Virus record (IMG/VR): IMGVR_UViG_3300044715_000401
Location: 1 to 32,191 of that record
Source: a virus
Taxonomy: Duplodnaviria; Caudoviricetes
Direction: 5' to 3' (one strand)
DNA: 32,191 nt
In this document: in pieces, positions 4,021 to 24,421 of the stretch
How positions within the stretch are numbered: the first letter of the stretch is position 1
Layout: each line of letters begins with the position of its first letter
The notes under the pieces: generated by a model
The model's database searches: none
What the model was told of the DNA's origin: nothing
Seen by the model: only the letters and a program-made list of their open reading frames with translations
Translations under genes and position numbers: made by a program

Positions 4021-4233
4021 ATGGATCAGAAATTTTGTAAAGTAATGCGTGACGGAAAGGAATGGTTTCAGTTCCCATCTGTCAATGAAAATGAAGTCAG
4101 GATTATGCTGATGAAGCAAGGCATCGATGGTGTCTGCGACATCCTGCCAGTCAACTCCGAAGTGAAAGTCATCAAGGAGACTGTCATCGATATGAGTAAA
4201 ACCAAGCCGAGAAAATCGGAAAAACAAATATGA
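4021..4233 (+). CDS. Hypothetical protein
   Basis: 70 aa ORF filling the gap, with ATGA overlap into the next gene. Confidence 0.6.
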   Translation: MDQKFCKVMRDGKEWFQFPSVNENEVRIMLMKQGIDGVCDILPVNSEVKVIKETVIDMSKTKPRKSEKQI

Positions 4234-9805: not shown

Positions 9806-11045
9806 TCTCGACCAAGCACGATTGTTCTATCGTGACACGCTACCTGCAACTAAGCCTGATAGCCTCATAACCAATCGTGACTTGCTGATACTTGACAATG
9901 GCGATAGCTATGTATGGCAATCAACCGGATGGGTCAAGGTGACCAATCCTCTGAAGGGAGCGCAGGGTCCTGCTGGTCCAGTTGGTCCGCAAGGTCCTGC
10001 TGGCAGTGGCGGTGGGATAGGTAGTATCGGAGGAGTGAGATATGTCACTACATGGGCAGAATTGCAGTCTGCGTGGCTATCGTTAGGTAGTGTGCGTAGC
10101 ATTCACCTTTCTGCGAACATTACCATGCAGGACACACTAACGATTCCTGCTGCGTACAATAATATACTTGAGTTGGACGGTCATGGCTTCACACTGACAA
10201 TCCCAACCAATGTAGCCAATGGATTCTTCAGGTCCTACAATAGCCTATCAGAAGCCAATGCAGGCATAGACTGTCAACTGCGATTCAAGAACGTGACTTT
10301 CTTAGGATCGGGCAGAACATCGAATGCTATCAACGTGCAGGCAACGTATGGCTCTTCATTCGAAGGATGTAGGTTCTACAACTTCGCTACCGCAATCAAG
10401 TGCGGATGGATGATGGGTACGCTGGTGCATCAGTGCTATTTCTGGGAGAACAACATCAGCATAGATTTCGACTACGCTCGATTCACCGGAGGAAGCAACT
10501 CAGCAAGCCAGTGCAATCATAGCAAGGTCACCGAGTGCAAGTTCAGACACTCAGCAGGTCAGTTCGCAGCCATTCGTGCTATCGCAGTCAGTGGCTTGCA
10601 GATACTCCACAACATCTTCGAAGGGGTGCAGGCAGGACCGCAGTACGAGGTATTCTTTGATGACAATGCAAGCAATGTGGTCAAGGAGGTCTTCATCTAC
10701 GGCAACCACGTAGAGCAGCAGCCAAGCATCGCAGCGTTCCACGTAAGACTGAAGGACGGATACGCTCACGTGGGTGGAATCTACTCGCAGTACGATTGTA
10801 CGCTCATCAGCTTCGATGCGAGTGCCTACGGCAAGATGATTGTCGACACAATACCATACCTGACTTCAGGCACTAAGTTCAATAACATCAACACGGCAGG
10901 ACGCTGGCAATTCATCAATCCACCTGCCACGTTCCTCATCACGGATGCGAGTAGATGGCTGAGTGTGTTGCCTATCAACATAAGCATCAACGGCTATGAT
11001 ACTAATGGTCAGAAACAATACTTGCAAGGAGTCAGCGTGAAATGA
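9795..11045 (+). CDS. Right-handed beta-helix (pectate-lyase-like) protein with short collagen-like repeat; possible tailspike/depolymerase
   Basis: Gly-X-Y run GAQGPAGPVGPQGPAG. Beta-helix-like repeats FEGCRFYNF, VHQCYFWEN, VTECKFRH, ILHNIFEG, IYGNHVE. Confidence 0.7.
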   Translation: MEFNLDQARLFYRDTLPATKPDSLITNRDLLILDNGDSYVWQSTGWVKVTNPLKGAQGPAGPVGPQGPAGSGGGIGSIGGVRYVTTWAELQSAWLSLGSVRSIHLSANITMQDTLTIPAAYNNILELDGHGFTLTIPTNVANGFFRSYNSLSEANAGIDCQLRFKNVTFLGSGRTSNAINVQATYGSSFEGCRFYNFATAIKCGWMMGTLVHQCYFWENNISIDFDYARFTGGSNSASQCNHSKVTECKFRHSAGQFAAIRAIAVSGLQILHNIFEGVQAGPQYEVFFDDNASNVVKEVFIYGNHVEQQPSIAAFHVRLKDGYAHVGGIYSQYDCTLISFDASAYGKMIVDTIPYLTSGTKFNNINTAGRWQFINPPATFLITDASRWLSVLPINISINGYDTNGQKQYLQGVSVK

Positions 11046-11760: not shown

Positions 11761-11882
11761 TACTCGTCATCTTGATACCAGTTCTCATCAGCATTGTACC
11801 TGCGTGTGCGTGGATAGCACACAAGTCAAAACCGAAGAATAGATATGTTCAGTCAGAATCAAGAGGAGAAGTACATCCTTGA
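11757..11882 (+). CDS. Small membrane peptide, 41 aa (MILVILIPVLISIVPACAWIAHKSKPKNRY...)
   Basis: GTGA overlap with the upstream stop and a strongly hydrophobic N-terminus. Below the ORF-track cutoff. Confidence 0.35.
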   Translation: MILVILIPVLISIVPACAWIAHKSKPKNRYVQSESRGEVHP

Positions 11883-12417
11883 ATATTTCAAAAACAAGGT
11901 AGGTCGCTTCCTTGATATTGGTGCTTATGATGGTAAAGCACTCAGCAATACCTATGCACTCGTTCAACGTGGATGGACTGGAGTAATGATCGAAGGCTCT
12001 CCGAGTGTGTACGAATTGCTATGTGAGAACGTACCCAGCAATGATATCACCAAGCTCAACATGATAGTAAGCATGGACAACGATGCTGATGTGGTTTTCT
12101 ACGATAATCTGCAAGCGACTGCCACGATGAACTTGGAGAACGTGCGTAAGTGGGAGAAGGAAACACCGTTCACTACGATACAACGCAGATCTACGCACTA
12201 CGAGAAAATGCTTGAGACTACCGGGACTGAGTTCGATTTTGTGTCAATTGATGTCGAAGGAGGTAGTGTTGAGTTGTTCTTCGGTTTGTTCCCGATCCTG
12301 ACTACTGTGCAGTGCTGGTGTGTCGAGCATGATAACAATGACCAAGCTATTCGGAAGCTATGCAGTGGGTGGAAAGTATTGTATTTCAATGCTGAAAATA
12401 TCATTATTGGGCGATGA
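11845..12417 (+). CDS. FkbM-family SAM-dependent methyltransferase
   Basis: FSQNQEE start, FLDIGAYDG...SNT and FDFVSIDVEG motifs. Confidence 0.88.
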   Translation: MFSQNQEEKYILEYFKNKVGRFLDIGAYDGKALSNTYALVQRGWTGVMIEGSPSVYELLCENVPSNDITKLNMIVSMDNDADVVFYDNLQATATMNLENVRKWEKETPFTTIQRRSTHYEKMLETTGTEFDFVSIDVEGGSVELFFGLFPILTTVQCWCVEHDNNDQAIRKLCSGWKVLYFNAENIIIGR

Positions 12418-17888: not shown

Positions 17889-18032
17889 ATGATCAACATC
17901 AACTATGACCTGCTAAACTGCTTCCTGCGCTGCCGTCAGGTCAACGGCATTCCCACCGCAGTCGACATTCTCACACGCATCGCTAAGACCAAGACCACGA
18001 CCTTCGTGCCACCCGGCTGGAAATGGCGATGA
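17889..18032 (+). CDS. Hypothetical protein, 47 aa
   Basis: ACAACAAACTATG leader, MININYDLLNCFLRCRQ...GWKWR. Confidence 0.5.
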   Translation: MININYDLLNCFLRCRQVNGIPTAVDILTRIAKTKTTTFVPPGWKWR

Positions 18033-18038
18033 TTGTTG

Positions 18039-18046
18039 TATATTTG
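18039..18046 (+). promoter_or_regulatory. TATATTTG -7-type promoter element for the primase-helicase gene
   Basis: Intergenic match about 100 nt upstream of ATG 18148. Confidence 0.65.
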
Positions 18047-18051
18047 TATAA

Positions 18052-18145
18052 GTAAGTAGTAGCCCATACTTACATATATTCCGAAAACATTTATCACCCA
18101 AGTGGGAGGAGAGGGGCTACTCTTCACCTGCTTGGGTTCTTTATT
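18052..18145 (+). promoter_or_regulatory. Two-hairpin kissing-loop RNA leader
   Basis: Hairpin 1 (18052-18073) has loop GTAGCCCA. Hairpin 2 (18096-18137) has apex GGGCTAC, complementary to GTAGCCC. U-rich tail follows. Confidence 0.7.
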
Positions 18146-18147
18146 CT

Positions 18148-20529
18148 ATGACCAAACTATCCATATTCGCCACAGTAACGCAAACAAACGTAGGCAAGGA
18201 AATATCAATGCTCGATGCATTTGAACGCATACGCACCAATCCAAAGCAACGTGAACTCATACAAGAGATTCGGGGCATAAAAGACAAGAAGCAACAAGAC
18301 CTACTCAAGAAACGCCTACCAGTCTATACATGGTCAGGAATATTCTCTCAACGCAACGCAGCATCTATCCAAGAGCATTCAGGACTCATATGCCTTGACT
18401 TCGATGAGGAGAAACTTGAGAACATCATGCGAAAGCCTGAGTTCATACTTTGCTGCTTCCTATCACCACGTGGAACCGGATACAAGGTGATTATACGCAT
18501 ACCTCCAAGCATTGAAGAACATGGTGAATACTTTGATTCACTCAAGGACTACTTCGACTTGCCTACATTGGATATCAAAGCTAAGGACATCAGCCGTGCT
18601 TGCTTTGATTCATATGATCCCAATATCTACATCAATCTCAATGCACAGGTATTTCTTAGCAAGTCAGTCATAACACATATCGTTGACAAGAAACAAGAAA
18701 CCACATCACTGGCATTCACCTGCGAGGACCCCGATAGAATTATGAGGTATGTCCTCAAAGGCATCGAGAAGTCAGCAAGCTTCCGTGATGGGCGCAATAA
18801 CTTCATCCATCTGTTAGCATCGGACCTTAATCGCTTCGGCATACCTGAATCACAAGCCTATCAGTTCTGCTGCCAGTACCAAGAGAAGGACTTCACCACA
18901 AACGAGATAGAAACAACAGTCAGGAGTGCATACAAACGCATAAACGAGTTCGACACCAAGCGTATGATAGATAAAGAGCCTATCCACTACGCTCGCACAC
19001 AACTACACCAAAGCAAACCATCATACGAGATACAGAAGGACCTTGAAACGAAGTACGGCATCAATCCAGCCAAAGCTAATCACATAATAGACGAGGCTTC
19101 CAAGAACGCAGATGACATCTTCTGGACCGAATACAAGCGTGACGGTAAACCATATTTCAAGATTGACAAGCAGCTCTTGAGAGACTTCTATGTGAAGAAC
19201 GGAATACACCGATACAAACTCAACAACCAAACGTGGATGATTGTGCAGGTCCTCAACGGTATTGTCAAAGAGATAACTATCGACAACATCAGAGACATAA
19301 TCCGAGAGCATTTCGAGAAACTTCCAAAGGAAATCGATGGGACTCGCAAGTCAATAATTCAGCAAGCCATCGAAGACCAACTCGATGCCAACTACCTCAA
19401 ACCTGAGAAGATTGCGTGGCTGCCATACCTCGACATAAATTGGCAGAAAGATGACCGTAGAACTGCGTACTTCTACTTCCAAAACAAAGCACTTGAAATC
19501 ACCGGGCAATCCCTCAAGGAAATTGAATACATCAACCTGCCCAACTGTATATGGCAGGATCAAATCATTCCAAGAGACTTTCATACCGTCACCGACTTAG
19601 ATTTCAATCATAACGAGTTCCTGCAATTCATAGACCTCATAGGGTGCGCTGGGCAGGACTGCGACAACTTTCAAATGCTCTGCAATACCATAGGCTATAT
19701 TCTACATTCGTACAAGGACCCATCTAATCCGAAGGCAATCATTCTTACCGATGAAGTCATCAGCGACAATCCTGAAGGAGGGATCGGTAAAGGCGTATTC
19801 ATCAAAGGCATAGCACACATCAAGAACCTCATCACATTTGACGGCAAGAACTGGTCATGGAATAAGTCATTCCTATTCCAACGTATACAACTATCAACTC
19901 AAGTGATGGTATGGGAGGACGTAAGTAAGTCATTTAATTTTGAGAAGCTATTCTCAATCATCACCGAAGGAGTCGAGGTCGAAAAGAAAAACAAAGACAC
20001 CTTCAAAATAGAATATCCCGATTCGCCAAAGGTCATGCTCACCAGCAACTATGTGGTTAATGGGCAAGGAGCAAGCCATGATAGGCGCAGGCATGAGATA
20101 GAACTCAAGCAGTTCTTCTCACCGAAGTACACACCAAGAGACCACTTCGGTCATAATCTGTACGATGATTGGGATCAGTACCAGTGGCAACTGTTCGATA
20201 ATTTCATGATGTCCTGCGTTCATGACTACCTGCGTGACGGATTGGTACGCACCAAACCAAATAATCTAAACTTTAAAAAGCTATTGAATACCGTGCCTGA
20301 AGAGTTCATCAACTGGTACAATGACTTCATCCCGGTGCATGAATTGTTAAAATGCAGCGAAAAAACTGACGAATTCAAGGCAGCGTTCCCAGATCATTAC
20401 AAGATTTCAGTCAAGCAGTTCACCAAGTGGTTGGCTGAGGTTTCCAAATACAATGGGCAGGAATTAGAAAAAAAGCACCTCAGTTCGGGTACTTGGGTCA
20501 GAATTACGGTAAAAAGTGAAGGAAACTGA
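18148..20529 (+). CDS. Primase-helicase (VirE-N/BT4734-like primase, PriCT-like domain, SF3-type helicase)
   Basis: SGLICLDFD, FLSPRGTGYKV, DISRACFDSYDP (VirE-N); DGRNNF (PriCT); Walker A EGGIGKG, VWED and MLTSN (helicase). Confidence 0.85.
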   Translation: MTKLSIFATVTQTNVGKEISMLDAFERIRTNPKQRELIQEIRGIKDKKQQDLLKKRLPVYTWSGIFSQRNAASIQEHSGLICLDFDEEKLENIMRKPEFILCCFLSPRGTGYKVIIRIPPSIEEHGEYFDSLKDYFDLPTLDIKAKDISRACFDSYDPNIYINLNAQVFLSKSVITHIVDKKQETTSLAFTCEDPDRIMRYVLKGIEKSASFRDGRNNFIHLLASDLNRFGIPESQAYQFCCQYQEKDFTTNEIETTVRSAYKRINEFDTKRMIDKEPIHYARTQLHQSKPSYEIQKDLETKYGINPAKANHIIDEASKNADDIFWTEYKRDGKPYFKIDKQLLRDFYVKNGIHRYKLNNQTWMIVQVLNGIVKEITIDNIRDIIREHFEKLPKEIDGTRKSIIQQAIEDQLDANYLKPEKIAWLPYLDINWQKDDRRTAYFYFQNKALEITGQSLKEIEYINLPNCIWQDQIIPRDFHTVTDLDFNHNEFLQFIDLIGCAGQDCDNFQMLCNTIGYILHSYKDPSNPKAIILTDEVISDNPEGGIGKGVFIKGIAHIKNLITFDGKNWSWNKSFLFQRIQLSTQVMVWEDVSKSFNFEKLFSIITEGVEVEKKNKDTFKIEYPDSPKVMLTSNYVVNGQGASHDRRRHEIELKQFFSPKYTPRDHFGHNLYDDWDQYQWQLFDNFMMSCVHDYLRDGLVRTKPNNLNFKKLLNTVPEEFINWYNDFIPVHELLKCSEKTDEFKAAFPDHYKISVKQFTKWLAEVSKYNGQELEKKHLSSGTWVRITVKSEGN

Positions 20530-21194: not shown

Positions 21195-21362
21195 ATGAAA
21201 TACGAGATCTACAAGGATAAACAAGGACTCTGGCGGTGGCGTGTCATCGCTCGCAATGGTCGAATCATAGCAGAGTCGGGCGAAGGATATACACGCAAGA
21301 CCAGATGCTTGGATGGATTGCACTGTTTAATTGAAGGGATATGGACCGGAGAATTAGCGTAA
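21195..21362 (+). CDS. YegP / DUF1508 family protein, 55 aa
   Basis: MKYEIYKDKQGLWRWRVIARNGRIIAESGEGY matches the family signature. Missed by the ORF track. Confidence 0.85.
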   Translation: MKYEIYKDKQGLWRWRVIARNGRIIAESGEGYTRKTRCLDGLHCLIEGIWTGELA

Positions 21363-21997
21363 TCCACCCCAGCTTCGGAAGGTCCGAGCAGGCACTATTC
21401 TGCCACAATGCTTGGGTCATGGCTGAGACGAACTACGATGAGATTGAGTGGATCATCAGCCTATCTTCGAACGACCCGGATGTCGATGACTACTACCGGG
21501 TCTTCGACAATGAGCCAGTGACAATCATCGTGGGCGATTCGATCAACATGGTGCAGGCGAGCAACGCTGCTGCCGAGCGTAGTCATGGCGATATCTTGGT
21601 GCTGGTGTCTGATGATATGTTTCCAACGCTTGGCTGGGATACCAAACTCATTGAACGCTTCGATGACTATGGCGATGAGCCAGTGGTGTTGCAGGTCTTC
21701 GATGGTATCCGCAGTGACATCGTGACTCTACCAATTATGAACCGACTGGCGTATGAGAAGCTTGGGTACTTATATCATCCTGCCTACATCTCGATGTTCG
21801 CAGACAATGACCTCGCTGAGACCGCACGAAAGCACGGATTCTACCGAGTGGATAAGAACTTGGAGTTTGACCATAGGCACTACACGGTAGGCAAGAGCAA
21901 ACTTGACAAGACCTACCAGAAGGAGAATAGCAAGATTGCGTGGGATCATGGGCAACGAGTGTTTGAACATCGCAAGCGCAATGGCTTCCCCATCTAA
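21341..21997 (+). CDS. GT2-like glycosyltransferase
   Basis: ISVIHPSFGR N-terminus, ASNAAA..GDILVLVSDDM, and GYLYHPAY..MFADND. Confidence 0.85.
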   Translation: MDRRISVIHPSFGRSEQALFCHNAWVMAETNYDEIEWIISLSSNDPDVDDYYRVFDNEPVTIIVGDSINMVQASNAAAERSHGDILVLVSDDMFPTLGWDTKLIERFDDYGDEPVVLQVFDGIRSDIVTLPIMNRLAYEKLGYLYHPAYISMFADNDLAETARKHGFYRVDKNLEFDHRHYTVGKSKLDKTYQKENSKIAWDHGQRVFEHRKRNGFPI

Positions 21998-22559
21998 GGC
22001 ACTCTGGACTATCTTCATCCTGACCATCAATGGCAGGGAGAAATTCCTGCAACGGCTAAGAGGATTGCTTGACCCACAACTTACGCATCTCGTTGATGTG
22101 GTGGTGTTGAAGGATAATCGTGAGTTCTCGATTGGCGAGAAGCGACAGTATGCAGTTGACAACTGTACCACGAAATACATTGCGTTCATTGATGATGACG
22201 ATATCATTGCAGGTAGTTATGTTGACAAGATTCTATACTGGTTGAAGCGTGATGCTTATGGTGTTGGCTTCAGAGGAATCATCACCACGAATGGAATGAT
22301 ACCCTACGAGTTCATCCATAAGGCAGGACTGACTTATTCAGAGAAGCCAGTGAGGTATGATGGTGCGATGAGATACACAAGACCACTGAATCATCTCAAC
22401 CCAGTGATGACGAGTATCGCAAAGGAGATTGGATACAAGCCTATCAGCATGGGCGAGGACCGAGACTATTCAATGCGATTGGCTGAGTCAGGACTGGTCA
22501 AGGATGATTGCCTTGTGAATGATTATCTTTACTTCTACCAATACATAAGCAAGAAGTAA
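21981..22559 (+). CDS. GT2-like glycosyltransferase
   Basis: WTIFILTINGR, SIGEKRQ, YIAFIDDDD and GEDRDY motifs. ATG 21981 is more plausible than 21903. Confidence 0.85.
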   Translation: MASPSKALWTIFILTINGREKFLQRLRGLLDPQLTHLVDVVVLKDNREFSIGEKRQYAVDNCTTKYIAFIDDDDIIAGSYVDKILYWLKRDAYGVGFRGIITTNGMIPYEFIHKAGLTYSEKPVRYDGAMRYTRPLNHLNPVMTSIAKEIGYKPISMGEDRDYSMRLAESGLVKDDCLVNDYLYFYQYISKK

Positions 22560-23205: not shown

Positions 23206-24421
23206 TATCGAGGTCAAGCTCAAGCGACTGCATAGTGGGCAAGAGAAGGTGCTTGGAGATGCGAGTCGCTACAACGTGCTGAAGATTGGCAGGCGATGGG
23301 GTAAGACCACGCTTGCGGTGAATGAACTGCTTCCTCAGGTTGCGCTTGACGGCAAGCCGTGTGCGTACTATGCTCCCACGTATAAGGACCTGCATGATGT
23401 ATGGCTTGAACTCAAGTACACGCTCAAGCCAATCATCGAGACGAAGAACGAACAGACCAAGCAGATGCGTCTGATCACTGGTGGCATTATCGACTTCTGG
23501 TCGATGGACGAACCGGACTCAGGGCGAGGTCGCAAGTATGCGAGGGTAGTCATCGATGAGGCTGAGAAGGCGAAGAAGTTCAGGGAGGCGTGGACGCAGA
23601 CAATCATGGCTACACTGCTGGACTTCAAGGGCGATGCGTGGATTCTCAGCACACCGAAGTTCGGCAGGACATTTTTCAAGGAACTGTTCGCAAAGGATGA
23701 TACGAGTTGGTCATCGTTCAACTTATCAACTTACGATAATCCGCATATCAGTCATGAAGAGGTTGACCATCTGCGTGAGCAGTTGGATGAGCTGACCTTC
23801 CGGTGCGAGATACTGGCGGAAGATGTTGACCTTGCGAACAATCCATTCGCTTATGCTTTCGATGAAGCCAAGCACGTGACATCGGTCAACTTCGACCAGC
23901 TCCATCATCTGTATCTGAGCTTCGACTTCAACGTGGACCCGATCACCTGCATCGCAGTTCAACACATCAATGGTTGCATCAACGTGGTGCAGGAGTTCGC
24001 ATTACGGAACTCTGATATCTATCAACTCTGCGACAGTATCATCGCAGCGTTCCCGAAGGCGAGCTTCATCGTCACTGGCGATGCGACTGGGGCGAATCGG
24101 TCAGCGTTGACAAGTGGCAACACCGGGTACTATGATGTGGTATCTACTCGCTTGCATCTTGGTAGGGCGCAGATGCGCCAGCCATCGGTGAATCCGAGTA
24201 TCAGGGATACGAGGGTCTTGGTCAACTCGCTACTTCAGAACTATGCCGTGCGGATTGATTCCTCCTGCAAGGGATTAATAACAGACCTCAAGTACGTGGA
24301 GGTGGACGAGGATGGTGATATCATCAAGGACCGAAGCACTGACCTGCGAAAGGCTGACTTGCTGGACTGTTGGCGGTATTACTGTCATAGTTTTCATCGA
24401 GATTGGATTCGCTTTTTGTGA
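23198..24421 (+). CDS. terL: Terminase large subunit
   Basis: LHSGQ, Walker A GRRWGKT, Walker B VVIDEA, LSTP, nuclease SFDFNVDP and DLLDCWRY. GTG 23198 is the likely start. Confidence 0.93.
   Translation: MTDIEVKLKRLHSGQEKVLGDASRYNVLKIGRRWGKTTLAVNELLPQVALDGKPCAYYAPTYKDLHDVWLELKYTLKPIIETKNEQTKQMRLITGGIIDFWSMDEPDSGRGRKYARVVIDEAEKAKKFREAWTQTIMATLLDFKGDAWILSTPKFGRTFFKELFAKDDTSWSSFNLSTYDNPHISHEEVDHLREQLDELTFRCEILAEDVDLANNPFAYAFDEAKHVTSVNFDQLHHLYLSFDFNVDPITCIAVQHINGCINVVQEFALRNSDIYQLCDSIIAAFPKASFIVTGDATGANRSALTSGNTGYYDVVSTRLHLGRAQMRQPSVNPSIRDTRVLVNSLLQNYAVRIDSSCKGLITDLKYVEVDEDGDIIKDRSTDLRKADLLDCWRYYCHSFHRDWIRFL

Follow-up and report, generated by a model that had tools for sequence, protein, structure and literature searches.

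The window, that is, the whole stretch of 32,191 nucleotides analysed here, is an entire linear virus record estimated to be 83% complete, and genes for a portal protein, a terminase, an ERF recombinase, and an endolysin are present. A Bacteroidota host is suggested by the promoter words and by Bacteroidota records found among the relatives. Also noted in this small phage were genes for an FkbM-type methyltransferase and for two glycosyltransferases (window 11845-12417 and 21341-22559). The gene behind the leader described below encodes a primase-helicase with domain matches to PF08800 (E 2e-13) and PF19263 (E 1.4e-7), and it also matched the primase/helicase phrog_18375 (E 2.8e-22) (Table 1). 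The 47-codon ORF on the other side of the leader was detected by tblastn in 20 of 310 loci. In 10 of these the leader lies between the ORF and the primase, and in the other 10 there is no leader and the ORF abuts or overlaps the primase ATG. This ORF is conserved and tied to the primase clade of the window phage; no Pfam family and no usable Atlas match were found for it, and a pattern search for the small ORF returned only the 7 contigs already known.

Table 1. Features of the primase-helicase leader and its flanking genes (window positions).
Feature	Position	Strand	Description
47-codon ORF	17889..18032	+	Directly 5' of the leader; ends PGWKWR; no function assigned
Bacteroidota-type -7 promoter box TATATTTG	18039..18046	+	Fits TAnnTTTG
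Hairpin 1	18052..18073	+	7-bp stem GTAAGTA/TACTTAC, loop GTAGCCCA; 5' end of predicted transcript
5' kissing segment	18059..18065	+	Complementary to 18114-18120
Linker	18074..18095	+	A/U-rich, contains ACATT; unpaired in full-length fold
Hairpin 2	18096..18137	+	Bulged terminator-like stem; apical loop GGGCTA(C), 18114-18120, is the kissing partner
U-rich tail TTCTTTATT	about 18137..18147	+	Predicted termination site; runs into start-codon region
Primase-helicase (793 aa)	18148..20529	+	BT4734-like_N/VirE_N domain plus DUF5906; gene behind the leader

The leader of the primase-helicase gene comprises about 97 bases, and the tips of its two predicted hairpins are complementary. The positions of the box, both hairpins, the tail, and the ATG at 18148 in the first-pass annotation were all correct on recheck. 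The Bacteroidetes -7 consensus TAnnTTTG has its G at -5, as described in PMC6847099, so transcription would start at about 18051, at an A located one base 5' of hairpin 1. The word TATATTTG occurs seven times on the + strand of the window and never on the - strand, and six of the seven copies are intergenic or just 5' of a first ATG. Five other boxes lie ahead of genes (window 4007, 9088, 13775, 22868, and 24424); three of them are preceded by GATG, and the full kissing leader was seen at none.

Hairpin 2 has a predicted energy of -27.2 kcal/mol, and the kissing duplex was predicted at -11.5 kcal/mol. The first-pass annotation had proposed 7-8 bp of loop-loop pairing. The complementarity is exact, but the apical loop of hairpin 2 is predicted to contain only 6 nt (GGGCTA, 18114-18119) and only six pairs are free, because C18120 and T18121 close hairpin 2 and A18058 closes hairpin 1; the seventh and eighth pairs compete with these closing pairs and need fraying. 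The basal stem of hairpin 2 (CCCAAG/CTTGGG) is directly followed by the tail, which gives the G+C-rich stem and U-tract of an intrinsic terminator. Six U were present in the first 8 nt past the last G-C pair, and the tail is interrupted. Hairpin 2 was not reported by a generic terminator scan, whose rule requires an uninterrupted stem. The predicted folding energy of the 141-nt region is -39.7 kcal/mol (z = -3.05), and none of 200 shuffled sequences was as stable.

We compared the leader with those of its close relatives, a set of seven sequences with three loop-code alleles (TAGCCC/GGGCTA, TAGCCG/CGGCTA, and TGACAG/CTGTCA). All 119 cells of 17 pairs were paired and 10 pairs had changed on both sides, a covariation that represents only three independent alleles; the basal stem of hairpin 2 was excluded from this count since two rows were misaligned there. 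The six core kissing pairs were intact in all seven relatives, four of them with double changes, and hairpin 1 kept all seven of its pairs, four of which had changed on both sides. Sliding the partner lowered pairing to 26-48%. At two columns G-U substitutes for A-U or G-C, as RNA allows. Comparison of the window with one relative, L004, revealed no differences at the 64 positions of the two hairpins, while differences were present in 15 of the 52 remaining leader columns and at 149 of the 400 third codon positions of the primase, indicating purifying selection on the hairpins. Another relative, L002, differs from the window at 28/118 leader positions and at 58/1200 positions of the coding sequence, which suggests that its leader is an imported allele. 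Taken at the sequence level, the window locus adds evidence of leader gain or loss and of allele exchange at a single gene junction.

To extend the comparison to distant phages, the 310 loci were reduced to 240 with a primase N-terminus and 200 nt upstream (70 were left out), which formed 142 clusters. A -7 box was present in 34 clusters, and both a box and a hairpin were present in 20, picked without regard to loop matching. At least six Watson-Crick pairs between a cluster's own 5' segment and its own loop were found in 13 of 20 clusters, compared with 25 of 380 swaps, and 0 of 10000 permutations reached this result. When the three clusters of the window lineage were removed, 10 of 17 own matches remained against 18 of 272 swaps (0/20000 permutations). 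The loop-loop covariation that the first-pass annotation had named as a check was found both in close relatives and among distant clusters. Among U-tailed hairpins located before any ATG in the loci, a match of at least 6 was present in 18 of 20 with an upstream -7 box, a count in which the window lineage and no fewer than two doubtful entries (L066 and L117) are included, and in 12 of 71 without the box (Fisher p 2.5e-9). By these comparisons, the match is kept with different letters in many unrelated phages.

We further examined 23 elements, a set chosen for having the match and whose counts retain the mis-parsed L130 and L023 with an over-extended hairpin 2. A U-tract (5 or more U in 8 nt) was present in 20 of 23, and an ATG lay 10-20 nt 3' of hairpin 2 in 20 of 23. 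The kiss stops short of the hairpin 2 stem in 19/23, and the kissing segment is located at +6 to +11 of the predicted start in 14/23. Loop and stem letters turn over fully between lineages, and no conserved nucleotides of the ligand-binding kind were found across them. Only a short linker word recurs: linkers are 78% A/U across the elements examined, and ACATT was found in 8 of 23 linkers against a shuffle mean of 1.1, in lineages that are not fully independent. Because hairpin 1 has only 3-5 bp in several members, the essential feature is the 5' segment matching the terminator loop. The recurrent ACATT word, the fixed position near the predicted start, and a recurrent internal loop under a short upper helix would also be expected if the kiss formed a sequence-independent 3D shape that is read by a protein (a host elongation factor, a nuclease, or a phage antiterminator) or that protects the short RNA, with the protein or decay setting the output. 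We consider this distinctly unlikely: a candidate factor was not found, a crude test showed no enrichment of AGTA/GAA (loop E) words (2/17 vs 12/75), and the downstream proteins belong to unrelated families, which makes autoregulation unlikely.

The majority of primase relatives do not carry the element, a box and hairpin being present in just 20 of the 142 clusters. When 48 hand-picked rows were placed on a quick tree, 7 changes of the leader label were required (at least 5; mean 16.3 after shuffling), and the leader is therefore clustered but patchy on the tree. Four sequencing runs, probably of DNA, contained a relative as contigs. L012 and L238 have identical leaders (116/116), whereas their primase genes are about 60% alike; L012 has a primase of a leaderless clade and yet the L238 leader. 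An identical leader before differing primases indicates that the leader works with different proteins. On this sequence evidence, gain, loss, or exchange of the leader occurs independently of the primase.

Replication genes are not the only ones preceded by the element. In a generic scan, 15 of 27 primase leaders and 19 of 193 other cases had a match; five of these 19 had the full anatomy by eye, and two precede NUMOD4-HNH endonucleases. A model built from the close relatives gave seven matches, namely the window, its reverse strand, the HNH leader of L080 (E 0.002), three primase leaders (E ~0.2), and one unrelated place. A scan for the hairpin 2 pattern returned 13 stretches, namely the seven known relatives and six chance matches, and blastn of the leader against phage records gave just four short chance matches. 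That the element adjoins a primase-helicase gene might suggest that it acts as single-stranded DNA, as an origin or a priming site, or that the match is incidental. Both are highly improbable: the element has a definite orientation, with a promoter box on one side and a U-tract on the other, it tolerates G-U substitutions, and copies precede non-replication genes, while chance is excluded by the permutation tests.

Three cultured phage genomes were scanned, and a match of at least 7 was found in 3 of 7 box-linked U-tailed hairpins at -20 kcal/mol or below. The leader architecture was present in two of the three, Cellulophaga phage phi19:3 and Flavobacterium phage elemoA. One copy in phi19:3 heads gp007 (DUF6291) and a replication gene, and another precedes YopX; the elemoA copy heads gp20, a replication protein, and the primase/helicase. 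The phi19:3 copies are located near 4100 on the minus strand and near 23520 on the plus strand of KC821608.1, and the elemoA copy near 10300 on the minus strand of MT497017.1. In phi46:1, the genome scan gave no convincing element and the primase leader showed no clear kiss. The primase leader of Maribacter phage Panino likewise had no clear kiss; a long bulged U-tailed hairpin lies before its primase operon (L334:100-205), by eye without a clear loop partner. elemoE was rejected as a carrier, having no gap ahead of the primase, and the H14 match was rejected as a leader as it sits within a long gene.

Other arrangements were observed upstream of primase genes. L098, L099, L102, L122, and L193 have another promoter-proximal type of leader upstream of the primase ATG, in which the 5' arm is G-rich and is accompanied by an AAAAGG/CCTTT inner pairing and a U-tail, possibly another uncatalogued RNA. 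In a leader variant from L036 (1357-1500), the kissing segment belongs to an inner portion of hairpin 2 that is topped by a GCAA-capped extension; L027, with a primase almost identical to the L036 one, has a different leader. In L033, L040, L044, L057, and many marine loci, the gap before the primase is A/T-rich and contains inverted GTCA/TGAC or GTCG/CGAC words in repeated copies, a pattern reminiscent of origin or protein-binding arrays.

We give an even chance to the following mechanism: the leader would act as a terminator close to the promoter, and the kiss would tune its read-through, rationing transcription into the primase-helicase gene. Hairpin 1 would fold first after initiation and capture the loop of hairpin 2 as this leaves the polymerase, before the 3' arm emerges. 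The kiss would then tether the 5' arm, and the basal stem would close more slowly as the polymerase moves over the U-tract, so that a fixed fraction of transcripts would read through and the remainder would end as an RNA of about 95 nt. As to the sign of the effect, we lean somewhat toward the kiss favouring read-through, because a hairpin of -27 kcal/mol hardly needs extra stabilising. In the read-through mRNA, hairpin 2 would end 10-11 nt 5' of the AUG and may damp initiation too. Since shape alone would count and not the loop letters, the leader would behave as a portable dosage cassette.

Folding was sampled every 6 nt of transcript length, and nested pairing of the two segments was the most stable fold at transcript end 18123 alone. 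A classical antiterminator was not found among nested folds, in which about 14 kcal/mol would be needed to open the basal 3' arm. Because no nested fold opens hairpin 2 and the segment pairing is brief, a kinetically tuned terminator is preferred. Hairpin 2 was not longer than control hairpins (median 14 vs 16 bp, p 0.7), and linker length did not track stem lengths (Spearman p 0.12 and 0.25), contrary to two predictions that follow from the tethering idea. The first-pass annotation had called the leader a cis-regulatory switch for primase dose. It is conserved, covarying, and placed before the primase-helicase gene, as such an RNA would be; no regulatory input was found, and the leader may therefore be a fixed leak and not a switch.

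The first-pass annotation had also left open whether hairpin 2 acts as a terminator or crowds the start codon. A kiss-locked hairpin 2 might crowd the start, which lacks a Shine-Dalgarno sequence, and lower initiation, with termination playing a minor part. The short distance between hairpin 2 and the ATG is consistent with this, as is the persistence of hairpin 2 in read-through folds, and start-codon structure is described as tuning initiation in Flavobacterium (PMC6847099). We consider such translational control unlikely, since the U-tract kept in most elements would not be needed, the nucleotides from -10 to -2 are unpaired in the predicted fold, and the kiss, some 30 nt away from the AUG, leaves the basal stem unchanged. 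The U-tract and the link to the promoter box favour termination over a translational switch.

The terminated RNA of about 95 nt might instead act in trans on nascent leaders of the same code, as IsrK or P4 CI RNA does, resulting in feedback on primase dose or code-specific superinfection interference. Several observations fit this: there are three alleles at one gene junction, the L002 leader differs far more than the coding sequence, allele C shows no cross-pairing to A or B (2-3 bp), two elements with distinct loop codes occur together in L179, and IsrK provides a precedent (PMC4825925). However, alleles A and B still cross-pair over 5-6 bp, rough geometry permits an intramolecular kiss (available/needed 1.56) that would occupy both loops, and drift with compensation plus recombination would likewise give many codes. 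Trans action is thus rather unlikely. A broader proposal, which we hold only tentatively, is that Bacteroidota phages have a portable, protein-free class of attenuator in which the loop code is a swappable address of 6-8 nt for the released short RNA; this RNA would feed back on, or interfere with, elements of the same code.

These results point to a structural class of leader RNA that is widespread in phages and has been passed over by sequence-based catalogues because its fold is conserved and its letters are not. If the kiss sets termination, the class would represent attenuation without a ligand, leader peptide, or antisense gene; it would ration replication proteins and endonucleases, and it would offer a tunable, orthogonal part for Bacteroidota genetics. 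The copies in the cultured phages phi19:3 and elemoA make the class directly testable.

The first-pass annotation did not recognise the leader as a named family, and the Rfam search agreed, giving no match in the window or 20 related loci apart from tRNAs. The c4/P4 CI models of Rfam found nothing at the gathering score, only an irrelevant match at E 2.9. In the literature searched, a scope that most subscription papers fell outside, there was no description of a kissing-loop leader, and the passages covered of PMC5737381 and PMC2864571 contained no matching motif. 

The analogy drawn in the first-pass annotation, the IncI1/IncB repZ leader pseudoknot, is alike in its long-range pairing within a replication-gene leader. 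As described in PMC8053102, the IncI system requires a leader peptide and an antisense RNA. The phage leader has no AUG leader peptide: 18051-18147 contains no ATG, only a GTG and a TTG inside hairpin 2. It also lacks a conserved antisense promoter, as a minus-strand -7-like box inside the primase gene and facing the leader (18185-18192) has counterparts in 2/23 elements vs 20/210 in the background and is missing in L002 and L238. Its partner loop is supplied by a terminator-like hairpin, and there is no Shine-Dalgarno sequence to expose. In the folds, the kiss does not invade the hairpin 2 stem, unlike the repZ pseudoknot that opens a start-site hairpin. The analogy is therefore not supported in its defining parts.

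P4 CI RNA with seqA-seqC, and c4 (antisense RNA RF01695, as listed in PMC2864571), resemble the leader in having complementary phage-leader segments and premature termination before replication genes, as described in PMC4825925. Those systems have two targets flanking a processed RNA, whereas the phage leader has one complementary pair, both partners being hairpin loops of a unit of about 95 nt. IsrK of Gifsy-1, described in the same paper, is alike in its promoter-proximal terminator and in yielding a short RNA and a read-through mRNA; it differs in that the phage leader has no leader ORF for translational coupling, belongs to another host phylum, and gave no sequence match. By this comparison with the published descriptions, P4 CI and IsrK are functional analogues only.

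The nearest candidates were reported by Fremin 2023 (PMC10690425), whose main text does not contain the word "kissing". The unnamed RNA candidates DNAVirus_4940, _773, and _8401 lie upstream of VirE_N genes and are alike in sitting within 25 nt of them, and the supplement lists four further unnamed candidates upstream of NUMOD4 genes. DNAVirus_4940 and _773 are 85 and 67 nt long and come mainly from freshwater phage contigs; RNIE called no terminator in them, while the phage leader has a terminator-like hairpin. Compared by table description only, these VirE_N and NUMOD4 candidates may belong to the same class. The leader is a real and conserved element of a class that is uncatalogued, these candidates having been compared by description only, and it appears to work like an attenuator without the defining parts of the known ones.
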